DNA of 31,872 nucleotides from a virus (taxonomy: Duplodnaviria > Heunggongvirae > Uroviricota > Caudoviricetes). The notes beneath the pieces were generated by a model. That model saw only the letters and a list, made by a program, of their open reading frames with translations, was not told where the DNA came from and searched no databases. Position numbers and translations under genes: made by a program. Position 1 is the stretch's first letter, and every line of letters starts with the position of its first letter. Of the stretch, positions 3,623 through 31,188 are shown piece after piece. Location: IMG/VR virus record IMGVR_UViG_3300045988_180666. One strand, 5' to 3'.

Positions 3623-6600
3623 TTAATATGCGTGGTTCAGCTTGCGCGCTGTGTATTTGGTCGTGTAGTCACTCACCTTGTTGCCCATGGTTGAGTTATA
3701 GACCAGCAGGAACGTCGCACTGTCGCCCTGTCCCATCTCTATGTAATCTTTGTTGCCGCAGTTCTCATCGAGAATCAAAGGTAACTCCTCTTTGTTCCAT
3801 GCGTAGGAATCGCTTTTGTCTTTGATCTTGTTGCGCCCATAAATGAAGAAGTTTGTCGTGCCTGGCTCAGCGACCACCGTAAATGTCACGGCGAAGTTGG
3901 TAGATGAGCCACAGCCTAATGCGCTGCGCACCTCAGACAGTGTTGGCAGCGTTATGCCGCTTGACGAGACGTAGCTGTAGATGAGCCAGACGTTATTCTC
4001 AGAAATCTTGGCATAGCCATTATAGATGGTGTTTTTTGTGCTAAGCGCATATCTGCTATACTTATATCCACCTATCCATCCATTGAGTACGCCATTGCCA
4101 GCACCTGTGAAAGCAAAATTATAGGCACCGTTTTTAGCCGAGAGTATGGCTGCGATATTGTAACCAAGCCCCCACCAGTCGCTGCTGTCCTCATTTTCGA
4201 ATCGAGCCACCGCACGCTGTCCTGATGACGCTGGTAGTACGTTGCCACCGATGCCCGCAAAGCATTTATGGGTATCGTTGCGAAATATGATGTATGCATC
4301 ATTGGTAAATGGGTCGTTTGTCAGACCCGTGCCCTGGATAGTGAATCCAGCGATCTTGCCCGCCAATGCCTCCATGGAGCCATCTTTGTTGATTTTGAAA
4401 TTGCTGTTGGCCGTGACCACACCGTTAAGGTTGATTTGGTCTGCCGTGATGGTGGCAGAGGAGATGCCGTTGGCAATCATTGTCTTGATGGTAGCCTCGG
4501 ATAGAATCTTGCCATCGACACCCTCGATTTTTGTAGTCAGCGCATTGTAGTCTGCCGTCACAAGCAAGCCACCTTTGTTTTTGAGCGTGCCATCGGCATT
4601 GAATCGCTCGCTCATCAGGGCGTTGTAGTCAGCGGTGGTGATAAGATAGCTCGTATCTTTGAGCTTGCCATTGGCATCGAAACGAGCAACTGCCGAAGAC
4701 CACGAATCGGCGTTTTGACTGACTAACGATATAGTCGGACCATAATCGTTGCGTATGTCTGAGCCTACGCTGTCGGCGTGTCTCCTGGCTTCGGCAACGG
4801 AACTGTTGAGGGCATTGTAGTTGTCAGACATAGTCCCTTGCAAAGTGTTTTTGGCTGCATTCAGCTCGTCTTTTGTCGCAGCCTTGCCCACCGTGGTATT
4901 GATGCCATTGACCGTTATCTTTAACTCAGCGAGTGCCGCCTTGGTGCCGTTGGCAGTATTGGTGACGCTCTCGACACGTGCAGTGATGCTGTCGATGTCG
5001 GTGTAGATGCCAGAAATTTTCTCGTTTGTGCTATCCTGCCAGGTGTTGATGAGGTCGATGCGACCTGCCTCTATCTCTATTCTTGACGAGAGTGTTGTGT
5101 TGAGTTCGCCGTATCTCTTATCGACATATAGGCGTATTGCCTCTTTCTCAGCGTCCAGCTCGATGCCGAGCTGAGTTGTGGTACCATTGACCTTGTCGAT
5201 GTTTTGTCCCAGCAGCTTGATGTTTTTGGCCGTCTGAAGTATTTGTGTCGAGACGGTCTTGCTCAGGTTGTCGAGCGGCTCGTCGGTGATGGTGAGCAGC
5301 GCGACGTAGATGTCTCCTGTATATCGGAGCACGAAGTCGCCGGTGCCATTCCACTTGCCATTTAGCTCTACCGTCTGCCACTCTGCCGAGTATGGCACGC
5401 TGACGCTCTGGGCTGACAGGTCGTTGGTCTTGCCTTCGACAGCCTTGCAACCCTCGAAGCCAAAGGTGAGGGTGCCAGCAGTCTTGGCGTAGATGCGAGC
5501 ACTTATATATAAGGTGTCTTGCACCTCGGTGTAGTCATCGCCAGTGGTGTTCATGCCATCCTCGCCTTTTTCTGCCGATGGCTGGGTATATTCCTTGTGG
5601 GTACCGGGTTTGCGGATGAGATCATTGGCTTGTTTGATGCCGCTGTCCTGTATGTGCAGCATGTTGCGACCCTCGTTGTTGTCGATGCTCACTCGGTGGT
5701 TGCCACTCACGGTGGCGGCACCATTGACCATGACAGGTAAGCCATTGGCATCGACCCAGAACTGGGACTCGTCTGTATCGTCGATGGTCCAGCCATCAAT
5801 GAGCTGCTCATCGTTATAGCCTATCGCCGTCAGAAACTGACCGTTATGGAGGTAGTTGTTCTCCTCTGTCGCCTCGTAGGAGGTCTGTGCGAAGCGGGTG
5901 GCGAACTGGTTCTGCAGCATCTGTATTTTGGTGTCGATGCTCTCACCTGTGCGGCGGAGCACGAAGTCGCCCGTGGCGTAGAGGTTCTGCAGGAACTCAC
6001 CGAAGCCTGATAGTGCACCGAAGAGTGGATGGGTGATGCCCCGTAAGTTGCCGAGGCGACCTTTGAGCGCATTGTCTGGGTCTGTCTTGAGACCATAGAT
6101 GATGTCCATGTAGGGCGTATCGCTGCCCACAGTCATCATCTGTATGATGCCCTTGCGGTCGGGGTCGGTGAGGTTGTCGACCCTAACAAAAGTGTCTCGC
6201 TTGGTGATGAGCTGCTCTGCGGTGGCACCCTCCATCGATGAGGTGAAGTTCTTGAACTTGACCCATGCTAGCATATCCTCGCCACTGCCCTCGCTGCCCA
6301 CCTCTGTCACGATAAGCTCGTATCGCTTGGTGACATAGTGATTGTTTTCGGTGGAGGGCATGCCATTGTACTGCTGCACCATCACGTAGTCATCCTTGCG
6401 GAATGGGTTGTACATCCTGCCCTCGTGGGTGTCGAGATAGACCCTGCCTGTCTCTGGATCGTAGTGGTCAACCTCTAGCATCGCCGTGAAGATGCGGTTG
6501 TCATTCTCGCCCAAGAGTTGGGAGATAATCATCTCGAAGATGCGCATGGTACCACGCACGATGAGATTATCGAGCTCTAGACCATACCTATTCTCTTGCA

Positions 6601-11396: not shown

Positions 11397-12458
11397 TTAG
11401 TTGAACGTATCGTCGAAGGAGTCGTCGAAGATGCGACCGCCCGTATTGTCGATGTTTTTGAACACGACATTCTGGACTCGCTGGGCATATTGGTAGCTGA
11501 AGGTGAACTCAGCCATGTCATCCAGCTCGTTGGTGCGCTCGCTCTTGGAGTCGGTGAAGGTAATCTCTTTGTCCTGTGTGTAGTCACGGAACAGATAGAT
11601 CTCATCGGAGCGCAGCAGGTCTTCGGCGAAGTGTGCCATGGACGGAGGAATAACACCTGTGTCGCCCTCGAAGGTGCGGGTCTCTTTGACGGAGTAGTTG
11701 ATCTTTTTGCCGCTGATGACGGCGCTCTTGCGCTCGAAGGTAGGTGCAATCTTCTTTTTGCCTAGGCAATAGAAGATCTCTTGGCACCCGAAGGAGTTGG
11801 TGAAGAGGAGCACCGGGTCGGCGACCGCCTCGGTATGGTCTATCTGGAAGTCTTGCACTCGCTTGCCCACGGTGACGGTGTAGGCGAAGAGGTCGCCACG
11901 GTCGGCATCGTAGTAACGGTCGGGCGAGACATCGAAGGTGGTGATGTTATTCACCGTATGGGTAGGGGTGGCATCGGCGGCGATATTGCCCTCCACGACC
12001 TTGCCGTCTTTGTAATATCGGGCTGTGACGGCGGCAGTGGTTCTGTCGGCACCTGCGGCATGGAGATATTCACGGTGTCCGAGCTGTGTGAGCTTGGCAC
12101 CATCGAGGAGGGTGAGGAAGTATTGGTCGAGGAACGACTGGCACGACATGTTGATGTCAACGGTGGCGTAGTAGGCGGTGAACTCGCACGACCAGTTGGC
12201 GACATCGCTCTCGCCATTGTGCTCGACAATCTTGATGGCGCACTTGGCGACCACGGTCGTGCGCACGGCATCGGAGATGAGCGTGCCGAGGTCGTAGATG
12301 GTGATGGTGCCAGCCACTGGGTAGTAAGTCTCGCTGAGCAGCTCTTCGCCCTCGCAGGTGATGGTAACGGTAGCGCGCTCGCCACCTATCTTGAAGGAGA
12401 AGGAGTCGAGCGCACTGGTGAACAATGGCGAAGATGGTTGGTTGGTAACTGTAATCAT
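11397..12458 (-). CDS. phage structural protein, function unknown
   Basis: 353 aa with ATG at 12458. First gene downstream of the -7 box at 12482-12489. Composition is beta-rich. Confidence 0.6.
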   Translation of the reverse strand: MITVTNQPSSPLFTSALDSFSFKIGGERATVTITCEGEELLSETYYPVAGTITIYDLGTLISDAVRTTVVAKCAIKIVEHNGESDVANWSCEFTAYYATVDINMSCQSFLDQYFLTLLDGAKLTQLGHREYLHAAGADRTTAAVTARYYKDGKVVEGNIAADATPTHTVNNITTFDVSPDRYYDADRGDLFAYTVTVGKRVQDFQIDHTEAVADPVLLFTNSFGCQEIFYCLGKKKIAPTFERKSAVISGKKINYSVKETRTFEGDTGVIPPSMAHFAEDLLRSDEIYLFRDYTQDKEITFTDSKSERTNELDDMAEFTFSYQYAQRVQNVVFKNIDNTGGRIFDDSFDDTFN

Positions 12459-12502: not shown

Positions 12503-12541
12503 GAAAATAAAAATACCTGATTGTCATCACGACAACCAGGT
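12503..12541 (-). terminator. intrinsic terminator after 12636..12947
   Basis: Minus-strand RNA: ACCUGGUUGUC-GUGAU-GACAAUCAGGU (11 bp, one G-U pair) followed by AUUUUUAUUUUC. Confidence 0.75.
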
Positions 12542-12635
12542 ATCGACTCATGGAGCGGACCACGCCTTGTTAAGCCTAAGGCTCCATTCCGAGACTGTTT
12601 TATGTTGTAAATGAAAAAAAATGTGCTTGTCTTGC

Positions 12636-12947
12636 TTACTCTTCGGGCTGTGCGCAGTTGATTATCCAGACGAGTCTGCCACCCTCGACAGACTTCATCT
12701 TGAAGCCGTGCTCGACCATGTACTCGGTGATGACGGGGATGGGAGCGACGACCATGCCGCTGATGGCCTCTTGTATATCTTTGGAGGATAGGAAGTCAAC
12801 GCATTGGCTGTATGGGTCATCGCCCGGTGTGTCGCCCTCGAAGTAAGCGTCGAGCGCCATGCGCACATAGTCGATCTTGCTCTCTTGCTCTGACTGTTGC
12901 TGCTCGTCGCTGTTAGCACTGAAGCCCATCACACGCATACGTTTCAT
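12636..12947 (-). CDS. hypothetical small acidic protein
   Basis: 103 aa with ATG at 12947. ATGA-type 4-nt overlap with the upstream gene, and followed by a strong intrinsic terminator. Confidence 0.55.
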   Translation of the reverse strand: MKRMRVMGFSANSDEQQQSEQESKIDYVRMALDAYFEGDTPGDDPYSQCVDFLSSKDIQEAISGMVVAPIPVITEYMVEHGFKMKSVEGGRLVWIINCAQPEE

Positions 12948-13213
12948 GCCTCACCTCCTTTCGTCTCCAGTGCTATGTTGATGGTCTTGAAGAGCTTGCT
13001 CATGTGGTCGAAGTTGTTGAGCATGAGTAGCACTTTGTCGGCACCGCCGAGGTCTTCGACACAGTTGGTCACCACCTCGTCTGAGATAAGCACCTTTTTG
13101 ACTTGCTCTAGGTACTCGATGAAGTAGCTGAGCTGGTTGACATCCATCATTTCTACGAGCGCATTCCAGACCTCTGCTGTCATGTGCATATTTGTTGCGT
13201 TGTTTGTGTTCAT
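12944..13213 (-). CDS. hypothetical small protein
   Basis: 89 aa with ATG at 13213. 4-nt overlaps on both sides indicate translational coupling. Confidence 0.55.
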   Translation of the reverse strand: MNTNNATNMHMTAEVWNALVEMMDVNQLSYFIEYLEQVKKVLISDEVVTNCVEDLGGADKVLLMLNNFDHMSKLFKTINIALETKGGEA

Positions 13214-13461
13214 GCTACGACTCCTCCCATCAGATAACCACCAAAGAAAACCACTGCCATGAAGGCTGCGAAGCCTAGTGTGGCCTTGACCACCTCGCCG
13301 TAGGTCACGCTCTCGTCGCAGAGTGCGGTGAAGGTCTCGCTCTCGGTCTTGGCGAGCTTCTTGATTTCACACTTGAGGGTATTGATACCCTCCTCTACGC
13401 TGATGCCTGCAGGTCTCACCTGCGCATCACTAATTAAAATTGAATTCTGCATAATTGCCAT
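13210..13461 (-). CDS. small tail-anchored membrane protein (holin-like or exclusion-type, unproven)
   Basis: The track ORF starts at 13575. The first 38 codons are AT-rich and contain a 14-bp inverted-repeat pair, so the ATG at 13461 (MAIMQNSILISDAQ...) or at 13452 is preferred. The C-terminus ATLGFAAFMAVVFFGGYLMGGVVA is a clear hydrophobic helix. Confidence 0.5.
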   Translation of the reverse strand: MAIMQNSILISDAQVRPAGISVEEGINTLKCEIKKLAKTESETFTALCDESVTYGEVVKATLGFAAFMAVVFFGGYLMGGVVA

Positions 13462-13709
13462 CTTATAACCATTATAGACCGACCTTGATGTATAAATACA
13501 ATGGTGGCGGTCACATTCACCGTTGGTTATAAGATGGTAGCTTTCCCAGCGAAGGGCAAGTATCTTACGGATCATGCAACCGCCATATTGAAAAGACCTT
13601 TTTCCCGCTGCCGGGAAAATGATACTTTATAGGCATAAAAAAAGCCCACGGCGTGAAGCCTAGGCGAAACAGTCGCCATCGCTGAGTAGATTACTACTAT
13701 CTTATAACC
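13458..13709. repeat. three copies of ATCTTATAACC (two extend to the 14-mer CCATCTTATAACCA in inverted orientation)
   Basis: 13460-13470 (+), 13525-13535 (inverted) and 13699-13709 (+, at the predicted start site of the orphan promoter). Confidence 0.6.
13637..13665 (-). terminator. intrinsic terminator about 45-70 nt downstream of the orphan promoter
   Basis: Minus-strand GCCUAGGC-UUCAC-GCCGUGGGC (8 bp with one bulge) followed by U7. Confidence 0.6.
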
Positions 13710-13714
13710 GATGG

Positions 13715-13746
13715 CAAAAGTACGAAGAATAATTGGAACCGCCAAA
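13715..13746 (-). promoter_or_regulatory. full consensus promoter (-33 TTTG, 20-nt spacer, -7 TACTTTTG) with no ORF directly behind it
   Basis: Plus-strand CAAAAGTA at 13715-13722 and CAAA at 13743-13746. Confidence 0.55.
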
Positions 13747-13816
13747 AAAAAAGCGAGAAATTTTGAAATAAATGACTTTTTTATGTTTTAGAGCATAAAA
13801 CAAGGGGGTGAGGAAC

Positions 13817-13848
13817 GAAAAAGCCCCGGATGCTCACGCACCCGAGGC
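13817..13848 (-). terminator. intrinsic terminator of the AT-rich three-gene operon
   Basis: Minus-strand GCCUCGGG-UGCGUGAGCA-UCCGGGGC followed by UUUUUC, beginning 7 nt after the stop at 13855. Confidence 0.65.
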
Positions 13849-13854
13849 TGACAG

Positions 13855-14247
13855 TTATTTTTGGAAATAAACTTTTAAAGGGATTGAATTCTCCACATTG
13901 CCAATTTTGAAAGAGAACTGATAGTTGCCCTCTGCAGGGAACTGGAGGTCGGAGAACTCAAAGATGAAGTTGCTGAAGAGAAACTCATCTGAAGGGTGTG
14001 GCTCAATCTTGGAATTGATGGGCTGGCCAAGAATCATCTTGCCAGTGCTCATCTCTGTAACCTCTGCCGAGAACTCTTGCTGAAGTTTGCTTTCCTCGCT
14101 GTTCATCTTAACTCTCGCTACCATGAAGAGGTTGCTCTTAGGCAGCGGTGCTTTTCTTACCACATAGTGGTCAAAAGTGCCCACGATGGTAAGTTTGCCG
14201 TCATTATCTTGTGCAAAGTCACACAATGCAAGAATATCTATGTTCAT
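13855..14247 (-). CDS. hypothetical protein, third gene of AT-rich ORFan operon
   Basis: 130 aa (MNIDILALCDFAQDNDGKLTIVGTFDHYVV...), predicted all-beta by composition. ATG at 14247 overlaps the upstream stop by 4 nt. A terminator hairpin begins 7 nt after the stop. Confidence 0.65.
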   Translation of the reverse strand: MNIDILALCDFAQDNDGKLTIVGTFDHYVVRKAPLPKSNLFMVARVKMNSEESKLQQEFSAEVTEMSTGKMILGQPINSKIEPHPSDEFLFSNFIFEFSDLQFPAEGNYQFSFKIGNVENSIPLKVYFQK

Positions 14248-15142: not shown

Positions 15143-15174
15143 CAAAGATACGGATATTTTTTGTAAATCGCAAA
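15143..15174 (-). promoter_or_regulatory. full consensus promoter of the AT-rich three-gene operon
   Basis: Plus-strand CAAAGATA at 15143-15150 and CAAA at 15171-15174, an exact 20-nt spacer. The ATG at 15112 follows. Confidence 0.65.
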
Positions 15175-15340: not shown

Positions 15341-16024
15341 TTATAGCTTTCCTTTGTCGTGGTAGCTGTAGAAGCCATCCTCAGCCAAGATGATATGGTC
15401 CATCAAGAAAAGTCTCATCACCTCGCACGCCTTGGCTATCTTCTGCGTGAGCATATCGTCCGCCTTGCTCGGCTGCGTGCTGTTCGATGGGTGGTTGTGT
15501 GCCACGGCGATGATGGTTGCATTGTTGAGCACGGCTTCTTTCATTATCAGTCGAACGTCCACCGCTGTCTCGGTGATGCCTCCCTCGCTGAGCTTGGTGC
15601 ACTTTATCAGCCTAAAGTTTTGGTTCATCAGCACTACCCAAAAGCCCTCTGTCTCATTGCAGCCTATCATTGGGCGAAGATAGTTGTAGAGTGCCAGGCT
15701 GCTGCCTAGGTCGGTGTTTCTCGCTACCTTTTCCATTTGGTAGCGTCTGCCTAGCTCGATGGCTGCCTGTAGGGCTATCGCCTTGCAGTCTCCAATTCCT
15801 GGTACCACTTCCAGGTCTTCTATTCTCGCCTTGCCGATGTTGCGAAGCGAGTTGCCCATGATGTTATAAATCTGTCGTGCCTGCTCTTGGCTGTCCTTGG
15901 TACCTGCCCCTCTGTTGATTACCAAAGAAATCAAGTCAACGTTGGTAAGGGTGTCGAAACCTTGGTTATAGGCTCTGTACTGCGGTCTCTCCTCCATACA
16001 AAGATTGTTATAATTTTGTCTCAT
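15341..16024 (-). CDS. radC: RadC-family JAB/MPN domain protein
   Basis: 227 aa. The N-terminal part is HhH-like (LEVVPGIGDCKAIALQAAIELGRR). The C-terminal JAMM motif is intact: E in ETEGFWVVLMN, then AHNHPSNSTQPSKADDMLT (HxHx7SxxD). Confidence 0.85.
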   Translation of the reverse strand: MRQNYNNLCMEERPQYRAYNQGFDTLTNVDLISLVINRGAGTKDSQEQARQIYNIMGNSLRNIGKARIEDLEVVPGIGDCKAIALQAAIELGRRYQMEKVARNTDLGSSLALYNYLRPMIGCNETEGFWVVLMNQNFRLIKCTKLSEGGITETAVDVRLIMKEAVLNNATIIAVAHNHPSNSTQPSKADDMLTQKIAKACEVMRLFLMDHIILAEDGFYSYHDKGKL

Positions 16025-16039
16025 ATCTTTTGTTATTTG

Positions 16040-16564
16040 TTAGTTATACATTCTCTTTGTTCTCGCTAGGAACATCGCTCCCATCACTTGTGCGCCACAT
16101 TCGGCTAGCTCGTTGGCGAACTCTCGGGCGGTCGCTCCGCTCGTCACCACGTCGTCGAAGATGATGACTTTCTTTCCGCTGAAGTACTCTCTATCGAGTG
16201 CCACTCTGTAGTCGAAGCTCTCACACACTCTGTCTGTGCTGAAGTGCTTGGCTGTGCGCTCTCCATAGATGGAAATGTGCTCGTTTCCGTTCTGTACCTT
16301 TGCGCCTTGGCTCACCTTTTGGGCGAAGCGAGAAAAGCGCTTGGTGTACTTCTTTGAGTTGGCTGCTGGAGCGCAAACCATCACGAAGTCGCTGGCTTTG
16401 TCGCCATAGGTGTTGACGAAAGAGCTGACCACCATATCGGCAGCTGCGTCTGTCGCCCACTGCTTTCCATCCTTGAAGGCAAAGATGAAGTTTCTCACTT
16501 GCTCTGCTTGTGCTGAGCGGTCGAAACGCTTGGAGCTGTACTCGTAATAATTGAAAGTTTTCAT
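16040..16564 (-). CDS. ComF-like phosphoribosyltransferase (PRTase) domain protein
   Basis: 174 aa. Canonical PRPP-binding loop KKVIIFDDVVTSGATAREFANELAECGA. The upstream segment VCAPAANSKKYTKRFSRFAQKVS resembles the ComF-type R.F.Q region. No N-terminal Cys4 zinc finger is present. Only 15 nt separate it from radC. Confidence 0.8.
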   Translation of the reverse strand: MKTFNYYEYSSKRFDRSAQAEQVRNFIFAFKDGKQWATDAAADMVVSSFVNTYGDKASDFVMVCAPAANSKKYTKRFSRFAQKVSQGAKVQNGNEHISIYGERTAKHFSTDRVCESFDYRVALDREYFSGKKVIIFDDVVTSGATAREFANELAECGAQVMGAMFLARTKRMYN

Positions 16565-17462: not shown

Positions 17463-19064
17463 CTATAGCATGGAACCCGTGGCGATGTAGCCATCAGCCT
17501 GAGGGTATTTCTCCATGCCAATCATGAGCGTGTCGTAGGCATCGGAGCCATCGGTGCGAGCCTCCAACTTATCCTCCTCGGTCTCAGCCAGCTTCTCGCC
17601 TCGCTTATCCTTCTTGCCGTTGTAGACCCCGGCCAGGCGGATGGAGATGAGCAGGTCTTCGTTGTTCTCGCTGTTGATCATCGAGCGATGCTCAGCCTTG
17701 CCGAGGAACATGCGGTTGAGCAGAAGCATCTTTTCGAGATGTCCCATCGGGTTGCCCAGATAGACCTCGTTGACATACCAGCCATGGTCGGTGAGGTAGT
17801 CGGTGATGAAGGTATGGAAGTCATCGTTCATCAGGGCGTAGTTGTTGCCCACGAAGGTGGAGTCGTAGTAGAAGTTGACCTCTTTGCACCGATGGTACTC
17901 ATAGTACTGCATGAACTTGTCGAGCAGGGCTGGCAGCTTCTCCTCATACTTCACGAAGATGCTCTTGAGGCAGCGTGCCTCGCCCCGCAGGTTGTCTTGT
18001 CCGACGGCTATCCAGTTGATGAGGGCGTTGGCATCGAAGGCGATGCAGAGCGGACGGTCGGGGTCAACGTCGGCATCCATTCTGGAATCTACATGCTTGA
18101 GCTTGTCGATGTCGTAGCCCAAGCCATCGAGGTAGGCGAGGTTGGGCGCCGTGTATAGGTTGGCATCCCTGAGGTTGGAGTAGAAGCCATCGAGCGAGAT
18201 GGAAGGTCGCTTGCACATGATGGAGGTCTGGAAGGTGAGGGCAGGGAGGTCTCGCTTCATCTGCTTGATGAACTCCATGCCGAGCACCTCGATGTTATAG
18301 ACCGATGAGTACTCTTTATAGAAGAGTGCCTTGGAGCGCAGTTGCGCCAGGAGCTGACCAATCTCTCGGAGTCGGCGCTGGGCATAGCCTGAGACATGGC
18401 CCGAGGTCTTGATGCGGTTGCGTATGTCATACTCCTCTACCACGAGCGAGGCGATGGCGTCGATGAGCAGCTGGTCGCAGTCTTTCTTGTAGTTGAGGAA
18501 CCAGGAGCCCTTCTTGGTCACGGGCATATCAGAGGTGATGAGCATGCCATGGTGGTAGTAGTGCTGGCCGAAGAGGTTGACGTTGCCTCGATTGGCAGGG
18601 AAGGTCTCGTCTTTGAGCTGTTCGAAGTTGATGAACTTCGCCTCGTCGATGTCGAGGTAGTCGAGCGAGAGGGAGTTGGAGGTACCCTTGCGGTCTTGCG
18701 AGATGATGGTACCGATGGAGCCGTTATAGAAAGAGATGGTGTTCTCCCAGTTGCTGGGCGGTATGACCGGGTCGGGCCATCCCAGTTTTTTGGGAGGCTT
18801 GACCCCGATGAGATAATGCTTGCCCCGGTGGAAGCCCCATCGCTCCCAGTGCTGAAGCATCGACGGTATGGTGTTGGTGAGGCATCGCTTGGTGTTGGCG
18901 GATACGAAGCCGCCGTTGCTGCCAGGCATGCGCTGCATGTTGCGCAGGTTGAAGGTGGCGTGGAGAATGCTCTTGCCGATGCCTCGACCGCCCACGACCA
19001 CGTTGTCGCGGGCGGAGATGAGGTTGACCTCCATCTGGGCTGGGTTGAGATATTGATCTATCAT
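17463..19064 (-). CDS. terL: terminase large subunit
   Basis: 533 aa. Walker A is VVGGRGIGKS and Walker B-like is LSLDYLDIDEA, followed by a C-terminal nuclease-sized domain. The start overlaps the upstream gene in an ATGA arrangement. Confidence 0.85.
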   Translation of the reverse strand: MIDQYLNPAQMEVNLISARDNVVVGGRGIGKSILHATFNLRNMQRMPGSNGGFVSANTKRCLTNTIPSMLQHWERWGFHRGKHYLIGVKPPKKLGWPDPVIPPSNWENTISFYNGSIGTIISQDRKGTSNSLSLDYLDIDEAKFINFEQLKDETFPANRGNVNLFGQHYYHHGMLITSDMPVTKKGSWFLNYKKDCDQLLIDAIASLVVEEYDIRNRIKTSGHVSGYAQRRLREIGQLLAQLRSKALFYKEYSSVYNIEVLGMEFIKQMKRDLPALTFQTSIMCKRPSISLDGFYSNLRDANLYTAPNLAYLDGLGYDIDKLKHVDSRMDADVDPDRPLCIAFDANALINWIAVGQDNLRGEARCLKSIFVKYEEKLPALLDKFMQYYEYHRCKEVNFYYDSTFVGNNYALMNDDFHTFITDYLTDHGWYVNEVYLGNPMGHLEKMLLLNRMFLGKAEHRSMINSENNEDLLISIRLAGVYNGKKDKRGEKLAETEEDKLEARTDGSDAYDTLMIGMEKYPQADGYIATGSML

Positions 19065-23027: not shown

Positions 23028-24053
23028 TTATGCAAACTGATTTAAAACATCCAACACTTGATCTGAGCAGAAATCCTCGACCTTGGTGTCATCGACAGCA
23101 GTGTGCGTGTCGCCACCAGGCTCTCCCTCCAGATCCTTCACTTTATCCTTCAGGTCATCTCTCTCCTTTTCGAGATTCTTGACCTTAGTCTCTAACTCCT
23201 TCTTCTCGTCCTTGACCTTCTGAAGCTCTGTGTCTTTGTCGGTCACGGCCTTGGAGTCGGCAGCGATCTTATCCTCCAGTTTCTGCATCTGCTCCTGTGA
23301 GATTGTGCAGTTCTTTGCGGAATCTTCTGCCTCAATGCCCTCGATATTGAGGACATTGTTGATGTGAGTCCATTTTTTGATCATATTAATAATTTTATTT
23401 TGTGATTTATCTTTGCCGAATAATCGGTCGATGATGCTTGGCTTTTTATCATACCAGGAGTTAACAACCTCTGGGAGAACAGGAAGGTTGTTGTACTTGA
23501 TGAAGTCTTGCGTCTGCTCGGTGATGTCGGCAGGCTTGCCATCCATGGCTTCATCGACGAGACCCAGTTCGATGCACTCATCGACGGTGTGCCACATCGC
23601 TTCGGACATCACCTTGACGATGTCCTCGTGCTTCTTGCCCGAGCGATCGCAGTAAACGTTGGCGATGATGTTGTCGATTTTCTGCTGGTTCTCTTGCTGT
23701 TTTTGAAGTTGCTCGATGAGCGAGCCTATCTGCTCCTCGTTGAGCGCAGACCACACAAACTGCTCGGTAGAGCACTTGTGTACCAGGAGCAAGCTATATT
23801 TGCTCATGCGAATCTTGCTGGCACCCATCGCACAGATGGTGGCAGCAGAGGCAGAGAAGCCCGCCTGGAAGTCAACGGTCACGTCGCCATGGGACTTGAA
23901 CATCTGACAGATGGCGAGACCTGCGGAGACCTCGCCACCCAAGGAGTCGATGGCAACATCGACGTGCTTATCTTTGTTGGCCTTAAGAACATCGCGAACC
24001 ATGAGCTTGGTCCACGAGCCAATATATCCTGTGATAGAAATTTGGTACTTCAT
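23028..24053 (-). CDS. ClpP-like prohead serine protease fused to coiled-coil scaffold domain
   Basis: 341 aa. The N-terminal half has ClpP/S14-like motifs (DSLGGEVSAGLAI; Ser region QAGFSASAATICAMGA; His region LLLVHKCS). The C-terminal part is a K/E/D coiled coil (KVKDEKKELETKVKNLEKERDDLKDKVKDLEGE). Confidence 0.8.
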   Translation of the reverse strand: MKYQISITGYIGSWTKLMVRDVLKANKDKHVDVAIDSLGGEVSAGLAICQMFKSHGDVTVDFQAGFSASAATICAMGASKIRMSKYSLLLVHKCSTEQFVWSALNEEQIGSLIEQLQKQQENQQKIDNIIANVYCDRSGKKHEDIVKVMSEAMWHTVDECIELGLVDEAMDGKPADITEQTQDFIKYNNLPVLPEVVNSWYDKKPSIIDRLFGKDKSQNKIINMIKKWTHINNVLNIEGIEAEDSAKNCTISQEQMQKLEDKIAADSKAVTDKDTELQKVKDEKKELETKVKNLEKERDDLKDKVKDLEGEPGGDTHTAVDDTKVEDFCSDQVLDVLNQFA

Positions 24054-25878: not shown

Positions 25879-25910
25879 TTTGCATAATTCAGATATTTTT
25901 TGTACCTTTG
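25879..25910 (+). promoter_or_regulatory. plus-strand consensus promoter (-33 TTTG, 20-nt spacer, -7 TACCTTTG) pointing antisense into the primase 3' end
   Basis: TTTG at 25879-25882 and TACCTTTG at 25903-25910. Confidence 0.45.
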
Positions 25911-25951: not shown

Positions 25952-28906
25952 CTAGAAAGGTTTATCACTATCTTTATCTACCTTGCTCCAGTCAATGGTA
26001 GATTGATATTCACCCCCAGCTGCAGGGACATCAGCCTTGGCAGCTTGTTTATCCTCTTTTTTATCATCACTCTTCTTGCTTCGGAGATAGATCATCTCGA
26101 CAGGGCTGCCGTCTGGGTTAGCTGGATCGCGTCTGATGATGCGGTGCTGGCTGTTGCAGAGATCAGCTGGGTTCAGCTCTTGGATGTATGGACACAGCTC
26201 GACGAAGGCTCTGAGCTTTTTGGTGAAGCTCTGTGTGGTCGCCTTGTTGATGCCTGAGAACTGCTTGAAGTCATTGAACGCACGCTCTCTCACGATAAAT
26301 GTATCGAGTCGCTCGCTCTCTTCTGAGAAGTAGGATGCAGCCCAGTCTTCGAAGTTGACACCCATGTCGGCCTTGAACTTGCGCTTGATGATGTTATCCA
26401 TCGGTGGCATGATCTTGATAGGTTCGCCAGCCAAGGAGAGATAGAAACGACAGCACTGCAGGAAAAAGTTGATGTCAGCATTCCACTCATCCTCAGTGTA
26501 TGTCTTTGAGAAGAGATCTTCGTCGAAGTCATCACGGATGCTTCGGGTCTCTTGGTAATCATTCTCCTCTGTGCGCTGATGGTAATAGTCGGAGAACACC
26601 ATATAGAGCAGTCTCGCCTCTGAGGAAGGGTCGAAGTCTGCCGGCACGTAGTTGGTGGTGAAGGCAATCTTCGGGCTATCCTCGAAAGGAATTGTGAAGC
26701 TCTGGTTGTTCTTTGGGTTGACTGTCATATCTGAAGTAATGTTATCGTAAAATAAACCTGTGTTGAGATAGCGGTCACAGTCATCGAGGAGCAGCATCTG
26801 GGTGTGCTGTGTCACCTGATCGAAGACGTGTGGGTTGTCCATCAGCTTAGGGTTGCGTCCGGAAAGCTTGACTGTTTTCATCAGCAGTGAAAGCGTCTTG
26901 AAGAAGAAACTCTTACCGGAACGGCCGTTGCACTCGTTGTTTTCACCAATCTTGTTGTCCATCGCCATCGGAGCCCAAGCCCTGGATGGTGCCTTGTAAT
27001 GATGGAGCATGTAGCCGAAGGTGAAAATCTTGTTTATCAAGTTCTGCTTTTGCTCTTGTATCTCGTTGTCGGCAAGCCCTTCGCCAGCGATGTCGAAGAG
27101 GTGTGCCTTGTGGTATGCCTCTTTCTCCTCGATGCTCTTGTCCTCAAAAGCATACTCTAGCTCTTTGCGCCAGTAGGTGCGAGAGGCGTTGATGAGATAG
27201 CCGAAGAAGTGGGACTTCACGTTCTTGACCTCGATGTCGAACTTCGGCCTGCCATCCTCGTCGATGGTTCGGGTGATGGAGAACATGTCATCCAACTTCT
27301 TGAAGTTGTGGTTGATGACATTCTCTTGCCAAACATAGTTTTTGAGCGAGCTGCCCTCACGCTGGTACTCGTTTAGTCCATCTTTGGTGACCTCGACGCT
27401 GACACGAGGGAAGAAGAACAACTGCGAGTGGTTGGTGTAGCTGGTGAAGTCTAGCGTAATCTCTTGGAGCGAGTCGAGCGCCGATGCCGACAGCTTTGGC
27501 GTGTTGAGCACCAAGTTAAGGATGTCACGCTTCTCAGCTCTCTCGATGACCCATTGGCGGCAGAACTCACGGATGTCTCTCGTGGTGATGAGCTTGACGA
27601 TGTTGCCCGTGATGCGAACATATTTGGTGATGGTCGAGTTGTCATCGTGCAAGGTATAGAAACCATTGAGACGAAGAAAATTGTAGAGGCACGCCGTGTC
27701 GATGTAGTGGTCCCAGGTGTTAGCCTTTTTGTTGAGCTTGCTCACCCAAAATCGGGCTGGCATCGCCAGTGTCATGAGGTTGCGGAAGTCTTTGCGAGTA
27801 TTGCGCAGCTCCATCCAGTCTCGCAGGTCTTTGCGCCCCTTGCCACGGTTGTCGTGGTAGGTGCGAAGCCAAGAAGGCAACCATATCGTATGGATGTCGA
27901 TGAAGCGCAGGGCAAGCTCTGTGCCCTTGGCGATGCCCGTCTCGTCGATGTCGGGTATATTGTAGAGCACCTCGACATACTTCATAATCTCTCGGTACTC
28001 CTCGTCGCTGAGCTTGTAGGTCTCGGAGTTGAACCATAACGGGTTGTAGCCCATGGAACGGCAGCAGAGACTGTCACGCTCGCCACTGCAGATGAAAGCC
28101 TCGGGAAGTTTCTTCTCCTTGTAAGGCTTGGACTCGTCTGTGTTGGTCTTGTTGTACTCAGCCTCTTCACGGCGGTTGAACTCGTGATAGGCAGCCTTCA
28201 GCTCAGCTAGGCCATTGATGTATTGCTTAGGCTTGATGCCGTCTGGGGTGTAAGAGAATCGCCACTGCTTTTGGTAGTTGAGAGGCTCATATATCTTGTA
28301 GAACTTAACCTCAGGCTTGTCGCCTTCAGCTGGGCGAACCAAGCACTCACGCATAAAGATAGGGTAGTGCTCGTTGCTGTGCTTAATCTTGACCTTGCGG
28401 TCTTTGACGTATCCTATCCACTTGGCGGAATGCCAGTTGAGCGCATCGACGTGCTCTTGCTTGACGTTTGGACCCAGTACCTTCAGTTCATCTTCGGTGA
28501 ACTTCTCGTTCAGCTCGAAAGGTCTGGTACCATCTTTCTCGTTGATGGTGGCATCACGCTCTGTGAACGTAGGCTTGTTGACCTCTTTTTTGAGTTCATC
28601 GCTAACGTTGTATTCGGAAGCCAGTCGCAGGATAGCATCAGGAAAGCGGTCGATGCACTTCTCTCTCATGTAGAGGTCGATAGGTGACTCGGCAGATCCG
28701 TCGCCGCCGAAGTCTGTCACTCGCCAGCAGTCTTTGAACTTTTTGAGACTGCAGGAAGGTGTTTTCTCATTGCGGATGGCAAAGTGCTTTTTAGGCGTGC
28801 CAGTCGTGCAATATTTCTGGATGCATTCTTTTGCGTCCGGGTATAGTGAGATGATGATGTCGAGACCATCATCTGTAGCTTGATAAATTTGTTCTGCTTT
28901 GATCAT
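25952..28906 (-). CDS. DNA primase (Toprim) fused to SF3 (P4/D5-like) helicase
   Basis: The track start at 28936 is TTG inside the promoter, so the ATG at 28906 (MIKAEQIYQATDDG...) is preferred. The Toprim-like segment is FICSGERDSLCC...LYNIPDIDETGIAKG. Walker A is ECNGRSGKSFFFK and Walker B is QMLLLDDCD. Confidence 0.8.
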   Translation of the reverse strand: MIKAEQIYQATDDGLDIIISLYPDAKECIQKYCTTGTPKKHFAIRNEKTPSCSLKKFKDCWRVTDFGGDGSAESPIDLYMREKCIDRFPDAILRLASEYNVSDELKKEVNKPTFTERDATINEKDGTRPFELNEKFTEDELKVLGPNVKQEHVDALNWHSAKWIGYVKDRKVKIKHSNEHYPIFMRECLVRPAEGDKPEVKFYKIYEPLNYQKQWRFSYTPDGIKPKQYINGLAELKAAYHEFNRREEAEYNKTNTDESKPYKEKKLPEAFICSGERDSLCCRSMGYNPLWFNSETYKLSDEEYREIMKYVEVLYNIPDIDETGIAKGTELALRFIDIHTIWLPSWLRTYHDNRGKGRKDLRDWMELRNTRKDFRNLMTLAMPARFWVSKLNKKANTWDHYIDTACLYNFLRLNGFYTLHDDNSTITKYVRITGNIVKLITTRDIREFCRQWVIERAEKRDILNLVLNTPKLSASALDSLQEITLDFTSYTNHSQLFFFPRVSVEVTKDGLNEYQREGSSLKNYVWQENVINHNFKKLDDMFSITRTIDEDGRPKFDIEVKNVKSHFFGYLINASRTYWRKELEYAFEDKSIEEKEAYHKAHLFDIAGEGLADNEIQEQKQNLINKIFTFGYMLHHYKAPSRAWAPMAMDNKIGENNECNGRSGKSFFFKTLSLLMKTVKLSGRNPKLMDNPHVFDQVTQHTQMLLLDDCDRYLNTGLFYDNITSDMTVNPKNNQSFTIPFEDSPKIAFTTNYVPADFDPSSEARLLYMVFSDYYHQRTEENDYQETRSIRDDFDEDLFSKTYTEDEWNADINFFLQCCRFYLSLAGEPIKIMPPMDNIIKRKFKADMGVNFEDWAASYFSEESERLDTFIVRERAFNDFKQFSGINKATTQSFTKKLRAFVELCPYIQELNPADLCNSQHRIIRRDPANPDGSPVEMIYLRSKKSDDKKEDKQAAKADVPAAGGEYQSTIDWSKVDKDSDKPF

Positions 28907-28933
28907 AATTCTTTTCCATTGTAAATTTGCTTG

Positions 28934-28964
28934 CAAAATTATTGCAAAGCGAGTTCAAAACAAA
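28934..28964 (-). promoter_or_regulatory. promoter of the primase-helicase gene (-33 TTTG, 19-nt spacer, -7 TAATTTTG)
   Basis: Plus-strand CAAAATTA at 28934-28941 and CAAA at 28961-28964. The ATG at 28906 is downstream. Confidence 0.6.
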
Positions 28965-29902: not shown

Positions 29903-30280
29903 ATGTTTAATGGTCAGATAATCAGAAAGTTAATGTCGGATGCTGGCTTAACTAAAAAAGAGTTTGAAAGACGTATGTTCGGTAGTAAATCGACCGACCT
30001 CAACCATTTGGAAAAAGCGAAGAATCTTCGCAGTGACACTCTCGAACGTCTGCGTGATGTGTTGAAGTGCTCTATGGATGACTTCTTTACAGCACCCTCA
30101 TGGGCTGAGAACGGAAAGGGGACAGTCGTAGGCTCTAACAATGTGCTGTCAACAGTAGCCATCGGCAACGAAGTGATGGAAGCCCAATATCTCAAGGAGT
30201 TGCTCTTGGAGAAGGACAAACGCATCAGCACTTTGGAAAATTATATCAAGCTTCTGGAGACTAACTTAAATAAGGACTAA
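29903..30280 (+). CDS. XRE-family HTH regulator, putative prophage repressor
   Basis: 125 aa, the only phage gene on the plus strand and divergent from the early operon. The N-terminal HTH is IIRKLMSDAGLTKKEFERRMFGSKSTDLNHLEKAKNLRSDTLERLRDVLKCSMDDFF. The C-terminal part is a coiled coil (QYLKELLLEKDKRISTLENYIKLLE). Confidence 0.75.
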   Translation: MFNGQIIRKLMSDAGLTKKEFERRMFGSKSTDLNHLEKAKNLRSDTLERLRDVLKCSMDDFFTAPSWAENGKGTVVGSNNVLSTVAIGNEVMEAQYLKELLLEKDKRISTLENYIKLLETNLNKD

Positions 30281-30510: not shown

Positions 30511-30542
30511 TTTGCGTATATTGAATAAAAGTGCTACTTTTG
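30511..30542 (+). promoter_or_regulatory. host TetR gene promoter (-33 TTTG, 20-nt spacer, -7 TACTTTTG)
   Basis: TTTG at 30511-30514 and TACTTTTG at 30535-30542. The ATG at 30592 follows. Confidence 0.55.
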
Positions 30543-30565
30543 CACATTGATAATTTATTGTGCAA
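30540..30565. promoter_or_regulatory. 7-bp perfect inverted repeat TTGCACA-N12-TGTGCAA overlapping the TetR -7 box / start site (likely autoregulatory operator)
   Basis: Read directly: arms at 30540-30546 and 30559-30565. Confidence 0.5.
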
Positions 30566-30591
30566 CCAAATCTCGATGGAGGTACTTCGTT

Positions 30592-31188
30592 ATGTCAATA
30601 TCAAAAACTAGACAGAAATTAGTGGATGTCGCTCGACAACTCTTTGCAAAGAACGGAATCGCCAATACAACGATGAATGACATCGCTGTGGCTTCTGGTA
30701 AGGGACGTCGCACGCTTTATACCTATTTTAGTCGTAAGGAGGACGTCTATTACGCAGTGATAGAGTCGGAATTGGAGCGCCTTTCTGACAAACTTGACGA
30801 AGTGGCCGCCAGTAAGATTCGACCTCAAGACAAAATCATCGAATTGATTTATACCCACTTGAGCATGATCAAGGAGACTGTTGTCAGAAATGGAAATCTG
30901 AGAGCTGAGTTCTTCCGCAATATTTGGATGGTGGAAAAGGCTCGCAAGAATTTCGATGAAGACGAGATAGAACTTCTCAGGAAGGTTTATTCCGAGGGCA
31001 AGGCGGACGGCGAGTTTGACATCGATAATGTAGATTTGGTGGCTGACATCACACACTATTGCATCAAAGGTCTCGAAGTTCCGTTTATCTATGGGCGATT
31101 GGGACATGGCTTGAACGTGGAGTCGAGCAAACCGCTGGTTGCCAAGGTTGTCTATGGTGCTTTAGGAAAGTCGGGAATGAAGTTGTAA
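30592..31188 (+). CDS. TetR/AcrR-family transcriptional regulator (host)
   Basis: The track start at 30547 is TTG; the ATG at 30592 gives MSISKTRQKLVDVARQLFAKNGIANTTMNDIAVASGKGRRTLYTYF, the canonical TetR N-terminal HTH. A consensus promoter and a palindrome lie just upstream. Confidence 0.85.
   Translation: MSISKTRQKLVDVARQLFAKNGIANTTMNDIAVASGKGRRTLYTYFSRKEDVYYAVIESELERLSDKLDEVAASKIRPQDKIIELIYTHLSMIKETVVRNGNLRAEFFRNIWMVEKARKNFDEDEIELLRKVYSEGKADGEFDIDNVDLVADITHYCIKGLEVPFIYGRLGHGLNVESSKPLVAKVVYGALGKSGMKL

Follow-up and report, generated by a model that had tools for sequence, protein, structure and literature searches.

A leader with three covarying copies of one key: a candidate competing-helix RNA switch ahead of a small membrane-protein gene in Segatella copri prophages

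In the stretch of viral DNA analysed here (31,872 nucleotides, hereafter the window), a minus-strand promoter is followed within a short distance by an intrinsic terminator. A preliminary description treated this pair as an orphan unit, yielding either a discrete sRNA of ~70 nt or a terminator-controlled attenuator leader for the small genes beyond it. This raises the question of what such a short transcript would act upon, and whether RNA and leader are alternatives at all.

A promoter-to-terminator unit at the head of a long leader

The following features define the unit and its surroundings:

13822-13849, minus strand: strong intrinsic terminator of the upstream operon, a 12-bp stem with a U tract
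13715-13746, minus strand: Bacteroidota-type promoter, -33 TTTG(G) and -7 TACTTTTG with N20 between
13637-13712, minus strand: predicted short RNA of ~72-76 nt from start site to U7, bounded by promoter and terminator
13685-13698, minus strand: hairpin 1, AGUAG-uaau-CUACU
13663-13677, minus strand: hairpin 2, GGCGA-cuguu-UCGCC
13637-13665, minus strand: intrinsic terminator, GCCUAGGC-UUCAC-GCCgUGGGC with U7; eight pairs, a 1-nt bulge and one G-U

The promoter is present where it had been reported (13746-13715, TTTG-N20-TACTTTTG) and is near-invariant among 73 relatives. It has both elements of a Bacteroidota housekeeping promoter (-33 TTTG and -7 TAnnTTTG, ~19-21 nt apart), and, read from the letters, its boxes fit the -33/-7 boxes mapped by dRNA-seq in S. 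copri (bioRxiv 10.1101/2024.04.05.588293). The pattern TTTG-N18-22-TANNTTTG occurs six times in the window against 0.40 expected, a 15-fold enrichment, while TANNTTTG by itself occurs 37 times against 12.2 expected. A sigma-70 scan listed nothing at this promoter; the sigma-70 model is not relevant for this host. Transcription is predicted to start at about 13712-13709. Upstream, the terminator of the preceding operon (-22.8 kcal/mol, z -5.4), which is kept in MT835559, forms the upstream boundary of the unit.

The downstream terminator, described earlier as an 8-bp stem with U7, is likewise real: a G+C-rich hairpin followed by a U tract, as expected of Rho-independent termination, with a predicted energy of -11.7 kcal/mol (z -2.6; -12.4 in relatives of type B, one side of a deep type A/type B split). 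It is absent from a simple scanner's list because of its 1-nt bulge and single G-U pair. Among 72 relatives the U7 is invariant and both arms are invariant or nearly so. The GGCGA-cuguu-UCGCC hairpin also stands (13677-13663), 99.6% paired across relatives with little variation; it has 3 nt in common with the 5' arm of the terminator, and the two are competing, roughly iso-energetic folds. Hairpin 1 is 100% paired, with three of its five pairs changed on both sides. More than 150 related sequences from gut phages and Segatella copri prophages keep the promoter, the two small hairpins and the terminator, and the short-RNA region (13637-13712) is 94-100% identical in many relatives. The isolated 76-nt RNA has no excess stability over shuffled sequence (z -0.95); its support comes from conservation and covariation, not from folding energy.

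The unit had been said to contain no ORF. Mechanically a 57-aa ORF with a TTG start (13745-13572) does overlap it, but this ORF begins inside the promoter and is not conserved. We rejected it as coding, together with two further readings of the leader, a 121-aa in-frame extension to ATG 13575 and an antisense 43-aa ORF: indels that separate type A from type B, some of them of 2 nt, break all three. ARAGORN found no tRNA or tmRNA genes in the window. In L039-like loci the promoter is duplicated and drives an inserted lipoprotein-like gene; no second copy of the sRNA was found behind it.

The first downstream ORF had been taken to start at 13461; its conserved start is instead ATG 13452 (MQNSIL...). 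This places about 260 nt (258) of leader ahead of it, unusually long given a mean 5' UTR of about 70 nt in S. copri, where a Shine-Dalgarno consensus is absent (bioRxiv 10.1101/2024.04.05.588293). The promoter-to-terminator unit is probably the 5' arm of this one conserved leader.

One key in three covarying copies

An element of 11-16 nt, which we call the key, recurs along the leader:

13699-13709, minus strand: copy 1, GGUUAUAAGAU, at the 5' end of the predicted transcript and complementary to copy 2
13524-13537, minus strand: copy 2, CCAUCUUAUAACCA, the reverse complement of copies 1 and 3, in a structured mid-domain
13458-13471, minus strand: copy 3, UGGUUAUAAGAUGG, at -19 to -6 of ATG 13452, the ribosome-binding region

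Copy 1 is placed at +1 to +14 of the predicted transcript, and copy 2 lies about 170 nt downstream of it. The exact 11-mer is found three times in the window against 0.27 expected, an expectation that allows up to one mismatch. Across the 31.9 kb, perfect partners of the 5' seed of the short RNA occur only within its own leader, and the label 'orphan' is thus misplaced.

In a comparative alignment, the helix between copies 1 and 2 has 11 pairs, six of them changed on both sides, and is 99.3% paired; that between copies 2 and 3 has 14 pairs, seven of which show two-sided changes and none a one-sided change, and is 99.2% paired. Slid controls for these two helices are 33-51% paired. Complementarity extends further than these pairs and to different lengths, 14 nt for copies 1 and 2 and 16 nt for copies 2 and 3. 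The duplexes have predicted energies of -22 and -21.4 kcal/mol in the window (the latter with a type-B median of -27.7), and their medians, -24.6 and -27.0 kcal/mol, are near iso-energetic.

In 147 of 152 distinct leaders a core of 11 nt or more is common to copy 1, copy 3 and copy 2 read as its reverse complement. About 30 versions of the core were distinguished, including one with a 1-nt insertion in all three copies, and across these alleles the three-way complementarity is maintained by strict covariation. The window and one close relative (L078) differ at four of 268 leader positions, three of which are the same position in the three copies; such coordinated triple substitutions in otherwise near-identical leaders make the comparative evidence unusually clean. 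Within each clade the cores are 3.3-5.2 times as diverse as the rest of the leader, and changes recur at the same core positions in both clades. The leader as a whole outconserves its ORF: in the relatives L004 and L038 it shows 100% identity across 325 nt, the protein only 79%. Outside the cores, much of the covariation derives from the one deep type A/type B split, covariation is uninformative for the invariant helices (terminator, hairpin 2 and a UGCAUG:AUGCA pairing), and related sequences may exceed shuffle controls without any structure.

Competing folds in the leader

Further elements surround the key:

13679-13688, minus strand: 5' strand of a second long-range helix, UACUCAGCGA, pairing with 13552-13543
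13543-13552, minus strand: 3' strand of that helix, UCGCUGGGAA, pairing with 13688-13679
13600-13619, minus strand: U-rich/A-rich spacer hairpin, UUUUCCCG-gcag-CGGGAAAA
13572-13586, minus strand: putative mini-ORF of four codons, AUG GCG GUU GCA UGA (MAVA; MAAA in type B)
13502-13584, minus strand: structured mid-domain of 83 nt, closed by GGCGGUUGC:GUGACCGCC, then A-CCA; carries copy 2
13562-13568, minus strand: fourth, partial copy of the key, GUAAGAU, pairing locally with the conserved half of copy 2
13477-13512, minus strand: alternative hairpin, GACCG...CGGUC

The second long-range helix has 10 pairs, three changed on both sides and many with G-U replacements, and is 96.1% paired against 29-56% for its slid controls. 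The spacer hairpin, an 8-bp structure noted earlier at 13600-13619, is present in the window and is swapped in relatives for one or two copies of other U-rich/A-rich hairpins. The mini-ORF, invariant bar one Y position among 72 relatives, overlaps the 5' strand of the helix that closes the mid-domain.

The mid-domain folds at -30.7 kcal/mol (z -3.89). Its closing helix, 9-11 bp and G+C-rich, leaves the ends of the domain paired and is itself 100% paired across relatives, one pair having changed on both strands and two on a single strand; the A-CCA that trails it in the window is ACCC in type B. In the isolated domain the variable half of copy 2 is predicted to be unpaired (median probability 0.82), and the conserved half meets the fourth copy, a pairing kept in 96.9% of cases largely through U-G wobble, in which the fourth copy tracks the insertion and AAGAA variants of copy 2. 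Since the fourth copy and the second helix keep pairing via G-U, which on the opposite strand would be A-C mismatches, the signal is strand-specific and lies at the RNA level. The alternative hairpin is 98.5% paired, with two pairs changed on both sides, including changes in a third lineage (L023, L050, L077); it excludes the closing helix and forms within the loop between copies 2 and 3.

The full leader also folds better than shuffled sequence (z -4.07), and its minimum free energy (MFE) structure has copy 1 clamped on copy 2 with the start region open. Across 129 leaders the predicted MFE partner of copy 2 is the local fourth element in 76, copy 1 in 45 and copy 3 in eight. MFE prediction thus points to no single preferred partner.

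The genes behind the leader and the spread of the locus

The leader is followed by a cassette of small genes:

13210-13452, minus strand: 80-aa ORF, a soluble N-terminal part and a C-terminal transmembrane helix
13213-12944, minus strand: 89-aa ORF, overlapping the preceding stop codon (ATGA)
12947-12636, minus strand: 103-aa ORF, overlapping the preceding stop codon (ATGA)
12512-12544, minus strand: terminator closing the cassette, followed by a -7 box (12489-12482) and a 353-aa gene

The 80-aa protein has 754 homologues in S. copri genomes and gut viromes, all annotated 'hypothetical'; identities in an alignment of the protein are 76-99%. Searches with Pfam, PHROGs and PADLOC gave no match for the 80-, 89- and 103-aa ORFs, and the AlphaFold2 model of the 80-aa protein is of low confidence (pLDDT 52). 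The ATGA overlaps suggest translational coupling of the second and third ORFs. Gene content between the 80-aa and ~103-aa ORFs varies among relatives; no replication or antirepressor gene was recognised among the downstream ORFs, and searches of the adjacent small ORFs gave no DNA-binding domain. The window also contains a Cro/CI-type HTH gene. The locus occurs in more than 190 viral contigs and several Segatella/Prevotella genomes, and the leader element resides in S. copri prophages.

A candidate switch at the start codon

Here we propose that these parts form a competing-helix RNA switch around one key, which would control translation of the 80-aa ORF and in which copy 1 would be an anti-sequestor both in cis and in trans; we put the probability of this reading at roughly 0.65. 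In the OFF state copy 3 would be sequestered by copy 2, hiding the ribosome-binding region and silencing the 80-aa ORF together with the ORFs coupled to it. This pairing would be joined by the GACCG:CGGUC hairpin and possibly by pairing of UGCAUG with the AUG. Were copy 2 paired instead with copy 1, strengthened by the second helix (13688-13679 with 13552-13543), the start region would stay open. A third partner would be the local fourth element in the closed mid-domain, a fold in which the variable half of copy 2 may stay accessible for landing.

The terminator, moderately strong and rivalled by hairpin 2, would be leaky and split output between two RNAs: a short RNA of ~72-76 nt with copy 1, and a read-through mRNA with copies 1, 2 and 3. 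Copy 1 would then act in cis on read-through transcripts and in trans, as the short RNA, on transcripts of the same allele, its accessibility in the isolated short RNA being only about 50%. Every read-through transcript includes copy 1, and an anti-sequestor working only in cis would keep the switch open at all times, barring an influence of folding kinetics, of processing or of a factor in trans; the proposed sign of regulation is accordingly tentative. By this evidence translation initiation of the 80-aa ORF appears the best-supported control point, over a classical attenuator. The preliminary description's choice between a ~70-nt sRNA and an attenuator leader thus caught part of the matter on each side, and the two are probably not alternatives; what it missed was the threefold, covarying key.

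Relation to known RNA systems

At the gathering threshold Rfam gave no family match over the whole window, including C4 (RF01695), isrK (RF01394) and riboswitch or cis-regulatory leaders, and at E <= 10 neither C4 nor isrK matched in 13400-13900 or in a type-B leader (L005, 2600-3060). Weak matches to isrL, Hrs12, snoRNA or miRNA models are far below threshold; the isrL match (13817-13900; 18.8 bits, gathering score 35) is confined to the upstream terminator. The supplementary files of the S. copri transcriptome preprint (10.1101/2024.04.05.588293), searched with leader sequences, gave no match to those tried.

In phage P4 the CI RNA has a pairing partner on either side, seqA upstream and seqC downstream (PMC4825925). 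The leader resembles the P4 seqA-CI-seqC region in that one promoter serves an antisense element set between two direct-repeat targets, the upstream target near the 5' end and the downstream one ahead of the first small ORF, with the antisense element in a compact structured domain of ~80 nt. As in that system, copy 2 is complementary to both flanking copies, 1 (six compensatory pairs) and 3 (seven). It differs from P4 in host phylum (Bacteroidota rather than Enterobacteria), in having no match to the Rfam C4/CI model, in the intrinsic terminator between upstream target and antisense domain, and in its downstream genes, small variable ORFs instead of a replication operon. In the immI region of P1/P7 (c4-icd-ant), too, the antisense RNA precedes its target, which lies on the same transcript where a small first ORF begins; there c4 acts in trans, and a few nucleotide differences create new specificities (heteroimmunity). 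About 30 versions exist here against two specificities in P1/P7, and the leader lacks a recognised antirepressor gene downstream as well as a C4 match.

In Salmonella Gifsy-1, experiments showed that the terminated short RNA IsrK (STnc1160) frees an ORF start by acting on the mRNA that arises from it by read-through, on which the first small ORF is translationally silent (PMC4825925). Promoter, terminator and small ORF are arranged here as in such a locus: a predicted short RNA with its own Rho-independent terminator and a small ORF downstream, complementarity of the short RNA to a downstream part of the long form, and alternative long-range helices at the ORF start (copies 1 and 2 with the second helix, against copies 2 and 3, at near equal energies). 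Translational coupling of the ORFs behind is a further likeness, here from sequence alone. The differences are again substantial. There is no isrK (RF01394) match; the key is triplicated and hyper-allelic, with one copy directly on the ribosome-binding region; the product is an 80-aa membrane protein and not a route to an antiterminator; and cis pairing gives the inactive form in IsrK but, in the clamp predicted here, an open start region.

A looser parallel is with activating sRNAs. DsrA and RprA free the translation start of rpoS by pairing with an inhibitory upstream strand. Unlike these, the activator candidate here comes from its target's own promoter and has the same sequence as the sequestered site. 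An Hfq-type context is not known from Bacteroidota.

Weighing other explanations

The same covariation can be read with the opposite sign, as P4/P1-type immunity, which we regard as somewhat unlikely. Here the mid-domain (13584-13502) would be excised as a stable antisense RNA of ~80 nt that acts in trans on copies 1 and 3 of new transcripts, whether made by the resident prophage or by same-allele phages that superinfect, blocking translation of the first ORF and perhaps favouring termination, and the ~30 alleles would be immunity specificities. Promoter, upstream target, structured antisense domain and downstream target at a small first ORF follow one another as in P4 seqA-CI(seqB)-seqC and P1 immI (c4-icd-ant). 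The compact mid-domain (z -3.89), with its paired ends and trailing A-CCA (type B: ACCC), is reminiscent of a model substrate of RNase P and exposes the specificity nucleotides, and the concentrated, compensated allele diversity is the outcome expected of selection for private specificity, P1/P7 heteroimmunity itself stemming from minor nucleotide differences in immI. Residence in S. copri prophages and the Cro/CI-type HTH gene in the window would also suit a role in immunity. Against it, neither the C4 nor the isrK model matches even at E <= 10, the CCA is not conserved in type B, and a terminator lying after copy 1 but ahead of the antisense domain would leave little repressor to be made; nor is lytic control evident from downstream ORFs that are small, variable and accessory-like, with no replication or antirepressor gene recognised.

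A purely cis leader, in which all helices form within one molecule as a kinetic, temperature- or factor-sensitive translational switch or an mRNA stability element, strikes us as unlikely even though every partner lies on one transcript and the full-leader MFE is an intramolecular clamp. The alleles would then reflect neutral compensatory drift, sped by template switching between the short inverted repeats (quasipalindrome correction), rather than selection for specificity. Templated mutation is known to use inverted repeats 50 nt apart, which could explain the lack of G-U intermediates between copies 2 and 3. However, neutral drift does not predict cores 3-5 times more diverse than the rest with recurrent changes in both clades; template switching alone cannot give three-way identity with copy 1 standing 170 nt away and in direct orientation to copy 3; and the terminator between copies 1 and 2 is hard to account for. 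A free-standing sRNA for host or other phage mRNAs, or a classical terminator/antiterminator attenuator gating the small genes, seems improbable. Promoter, terminator and hairpin 2 over the terminator arm are all present and conserved, and near-equal energies of hairpin and terminator could make termination tunable, but the seed's only perfect partners in 31.9 kb are in its own leader, the covarying elements indicate control at a start codon 185 nt past the terminator, and the antiterminator alternative has no covariation support because hairpin 2 and terminator hardly vary. We give very little credence to DNA operator sites for a sequence-specific protein (a repressor, a recombination directionality factor or an integrase binding arm-type sites) that covary with its specificity. 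Three motifs of 11-14 bp, two direct and one inverted, over about 250 bp beside a promoter, one of them overlapping the transcription start, and copies that are strictly identical rather than G-U tolerant, would suit such a protein. Yet ~30 single-base alleles in near-identical leaders would each demand matching protein changes, the adjacent small ORFs have no recognisable DNA-binding domain, the complementarity is unequal in length (14 against 16 nt), further helices and the fourth element stay paired via strand-specific G-U wobble, and copy 3 sits exactly on the translation-initiation region.

Implications

Very little work has addressed post-transcriptional control in Bacteroidota and their phages; S. 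copri received its first transcriptome map in 2024, and phages go unmentioned in it (bioRxiv 10.1101/2024.04.05.588293). The competing-helix switch proposed above would place one key in the 5' seed of a short RNA, in the exposed loop of an antisense domain and in the ribosome-binding region of a membrane-protein gene. We tentatively suggest, at less than even odds, that this is an RNA-only, hyper-allelic lock-and-key, its ~30 keys being private specificities maintained by conflict between related phages (through immunity or avoided cross-activation), and that it would be the first such system in Bacteroidota, arisen independently of enterobacterial C4/CI/IsrK. If so, the locus would in effect be a natural library of orthogonal riboregulators. 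Should the switch act only in cis, it would still be a new structured leader with good support. Were the alleles true specificities, Bacteroidota would gain about 30 natural key/lock pairs, orthogonal and suitable as riboregulators, the logic of P4, P1 and IsrK would have evolved independently in a phylum without Shine-Dalgarno-based initiation, and the keys would explain the coexistence and exclusion of related prophages in a highly prevalent human gut bacterium.

Three copies of a short key in the leader

The minus-strand leader of about 260 nt that precedes the small membrane-protein gene (80-aa ORF, 13452..13210) contains a short 'key', missed in the preliminary description: the window has exactly three occurrences of the 11-mer GGTTATAAGAT. 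The elements of the leader and its cassette are:

13746-13715 (-): promoter TTTG-N20-TACTTTTG, -33/-7 type
13709-13699 (-): copy 1 of GGTTATAAGAT, at the extreme 5' end of the predicted transcript
13688-13679 (part of the short RNA) with 13552-13543 (-): second long-range helix, from covariation
13665-13637 (-): intrinsic terminator, bulged 8-bp stem (-11.7 kcal/mol), then an invariant U7
13584-13576 with 13514-13506 (-): 9-bp, G+C-rich closing helix of the mid-domain, enclosing 83 nt around copy 2
13568-13562 (-): fourth, partial key copy, pairing with the conserved half of copy 2
13525-13535 (+ strand match): copy 2, the reverse complement of copy 1, about 170 nt downstream of it
13470-13460 (-): copy 3 of GGTTATAAGAT, ending six bases ahead of the AUG of the 80-aa ORF
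12544-12512 (-): terminator of the cassette itself, followed by a -7 box

The sole other near match, GGTGATAAGAT (one mismatch; 4637-4647, +), lies antisense inside a 1159-aa gene and is probably due to chance. MT835559, an unannotated human-gut 'Bacteriophage sp.' and the only match to the window in the phage collection, conserves only 13764-13223 out of the local 1.7 kb; its key copies are unlike those of the window, yet they match one another.

Promoter, terminator and hairpins

The promoter proposed in the preliminary description lies where it had been placed; its motif occurs at six sites in the window against 0.40 expected, and it agrees with the -33/-7 boxes mapped in Segatella copri (bioRxiv 10.1101/2024.04.05.588293). 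The remaining full matches are at 15143-15174 (-), 28934-28964 (-), 25879-25910 (+), 28898-28929 (+) and 30511-30542 (+). Extra -7 boxes directly upstream of the genes starting at 12458, 7102, 24053 and 25209 suggest a structural region with many internal promoters. Five related loci (L039 at 2130-2700, L008, L031, L027, L042) repeat the promoter region in degenerate form about 500 nt upstream, where it would drive an inserted gene of about 126 aa with a signal-peptide- or lipoprotein-like N-terminus; in these loci a T9 run in the -33 region of the main promoter is also the U tract of the inserted gene's terminator hairpin.

The terminator and the GGCGA/UCGCC hairpin of the predicted short RNA (~72-76 nt, carrying copy 1) are likewise present as first described, the former overlooked by a simple scanner because of its bulge. 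The two share three bases in the 5' arm of the terminator and are about iso-energetic. The further hairpin reported at 13619-13600 also exists, and in relatives gives way to other U/A-rich hairpins in one or two copies. Comparison of this spacer (alignment A2 columns 106-150, equivalent to window ~13620-13590) found it tandemly duplicated in most type-B leaders (one of two leader clades) and single in L009, L054, L067 and L080; in L015 the sequence differs and a hairpin is still formed. Two earlier details need amendment. The downstream ORF has its conserved start codon at 13452, not 13461, and the interval said to hold no ORF is in fact overlapped by mechanical ORFs, which we reject as coding since their reading frames are not conserved in relatives.

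Covariation across relatives

A protein-based scan yielded 195 related viral loci, 80 of which were retrieved, and DNA-pattern scans supplied more. In many of them conservation is higher in the non-coding leader than in the ORF behind it (100% over 325 nt versus 79% protein identity). About 30 different cores occur among 152 distinct leaders, and in 147 of these copies 1 and 3 and the reverse complement of copy 2 have a core of at least 11 nt in common; the other five show one- or two-base differences, mostly in copy 1. One core version has a one-base insertion in all three copies. In 72 aligned sequences the copy 2:copy 3 helix comprises 14 pairs, seven changed on both sides and none on one side only (99.2% of cells paired), and the copy 1:copy 2 helix 11 pairs, six of them compensatory (99.3% paired), compared with 33-51% in slid controls. 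The window differs from the related locus L078 at 4 of 268 leader positions, three of which are the equivalent position of the three copies. Within each of the two clades, the cores are 3.3-5.2 times as diverse as the remainder of the leader. One locus, L084 (uncultured Prevotella MAG UMGS1464), has GGTTAAAAGACGAT as copies 1 and 3 and the complement of another allele, GTCTACAAGATGA, as copy 2; this mismatch reflects either natural recombination or a low-coverage assembly that is chimeric.

The second long-range helix is 96.1% paired, with three compensatory pairs and many G-U replacements. Much covariation outside the cores depends on one deep clade split, and several helices are invariant and hence beyond such testing. 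The same applies to the pairing of UGCAUG with the start codon that RNAalifold adds, because those bases never vary. The fourth key copy tracks copy 2 variants, largely via U-G wobble. The mid-domain (13584-13502, -) has a predicted fold of -30.7 kcal/mol (z -3.89); in the isolated domain, copy 2 is predicted to be accessible in its variable half (median unpaired probability 0.82) and paired in its conserved half (0.30). A covarying GACCG/CGGUC hairpin competes with the closing helix and forms once copy 2 pairs with copy 3. After the closing helix stands A-CCA (13502-13505, -; ACCC in type B), resembling a tRNA acceptor end or RNase P model substrates. A four-codon mini-ORF, AUG GCG GUU GCA UGA (MAVA; MAAA in type B; 13572-13586, -), is invariant in relatives save one pyrimidine and overlaps the 5' strand of the closing helix, which its translation, if it occurs, would melt.

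Phage setting and gene neighbourhood

All long ORFs of the window are on the minus strand; identifiable genes also include a long coiled-coil protein.

30547-31188 (+): TetR-family regulator, after the HTH gene, with its own -33/-7 promoter (30511-30542)
29903-30280 (+): Cro/CI-type HTH gene near the right end, divergent from the minus-strand genes
23028-24053 (-): ClpP-like prohead protease
17463-19064 (-): large terminase, weak match
16040-16564 and 15341-16024 (-): phosphoribosyltransferase and adjoining RadC-like JAB protein

A conserved 20-nt leader pattern matched nine Segatella/Prevotella genomes, and the 80-aa protein has 754 homologues, at least one in a complete S. copri genome; on these sequence grounds the window is assigned to a temperate phage or prophage of the Segatella copri complex. 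The HTH and TetR region may be its lysogeny-control end or neighbouring host DNA. The phosphoribosyltransferase (174 aa) hits two PADLOC toxin models, ShosT (1.6e-9) and PsyrT (9e-9), and with the JAB gene, just upstream of the regulatory cassette, may form a phage-borne defence or counter-defence pair. In MT835559 (L001, 2117-2809) the place upstream of the leader that in the window is taken by DUF6941 and two unknown ORFs has, from inspection of translations alone, a 61-aa ORF resembling the toxin HicA paired with a 142-aa ORF resembling the HTH-containing antitoxin HicB. The cassette-flanking region appears to be an accessory-gene hotspot. Relatives also differ in which genes separate the 80-aa ORF from the conserved genes of ~103 and 353 aa (window 12636-13213): ORFs of ~146 and ~98 aa are optional, and there is a 111-aa or else an 89-aa ORF. 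For the 80-aa protein, AlphaFold gives a poor model (pLDDT 52).

Proposed mechanism and alternatives

Copy 2 would have three mutually exclusive partners of similar energy: its duplex with copy 1 has a median energy of -24.6 kcal/mol and that with copy 3 one of -27.0, and its predicted MFE partner differs across 129 leaders. Pairing with copy 3 would bury the translation-initiation region, whereas pairing with copy 1, together with the second long-range helix, would leave it open; MFE prediction on the full leader of the window gives this copy 1-clamped fold (z -4.07). The terminator would divide output between the short RNA and a read-through mRNA. We read copy 2:copy 3 as the OFF state and copy 1 as an anti-sequestor, in cis and also in trans when carried by the terminated short RNA; we infer the sign of regulation, that the terminator leaks, and any action in trans.

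The same order of parts is found in P4 immunity (seqA, CI RNA with seqB, seqC), in the Gifsy-1 isrK locus (PMC4825925), whose terminated short RNA acts on the translationally silent mRNA made by read-through, with a processed complementary RNA located further downstream, and in P1/P7 c4-icd-ant, where few nucleotide differences give heteroimmunity. The leader is predicted to work like these systems, yet no relationship is detectable, and membership tests placed it in neither the C4 nor the isrK family of Rfam. No description of the element was found in the S. copri transcriptome study, its supplements or literature searches. A closer P4 parallel, with the mid-domain processed into a trans-acting repressor and key alleles serving as immunity types, would explain why the domain is compact, why it has an A-CCA tail and why alleles are so diverse. 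We rank it as plausible but less likely; behind the leader no gene for lytic control can be recognised, and gene content there differs among relatives. It is possible that the switch acts in cis only and that the copies co-evolve neutrally by template switching, but this leaves unexplained both the concentration of variation in the cores and the terminator placed between copies 1 and 2. That the copies are protein operators is unlikely: the G-U wobble is strand-specific and meaningless for duplex DNA, and this, with the placement of the elements relative to promoter, terminator and start codon, argues for RNA pairing.

A 258-nt structured leader is exceptional for S. copri, which is without a Shine-Dalgarno consensus and has 5' UTRs that are short on average (bioRxiv 10.1101/2024.04.05.588293). 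The three small ORFs of the cassette overlap via ATGA (at 13213 and 12947), so that control of the 80-aa ORF should spread by translational coupling to the next two.
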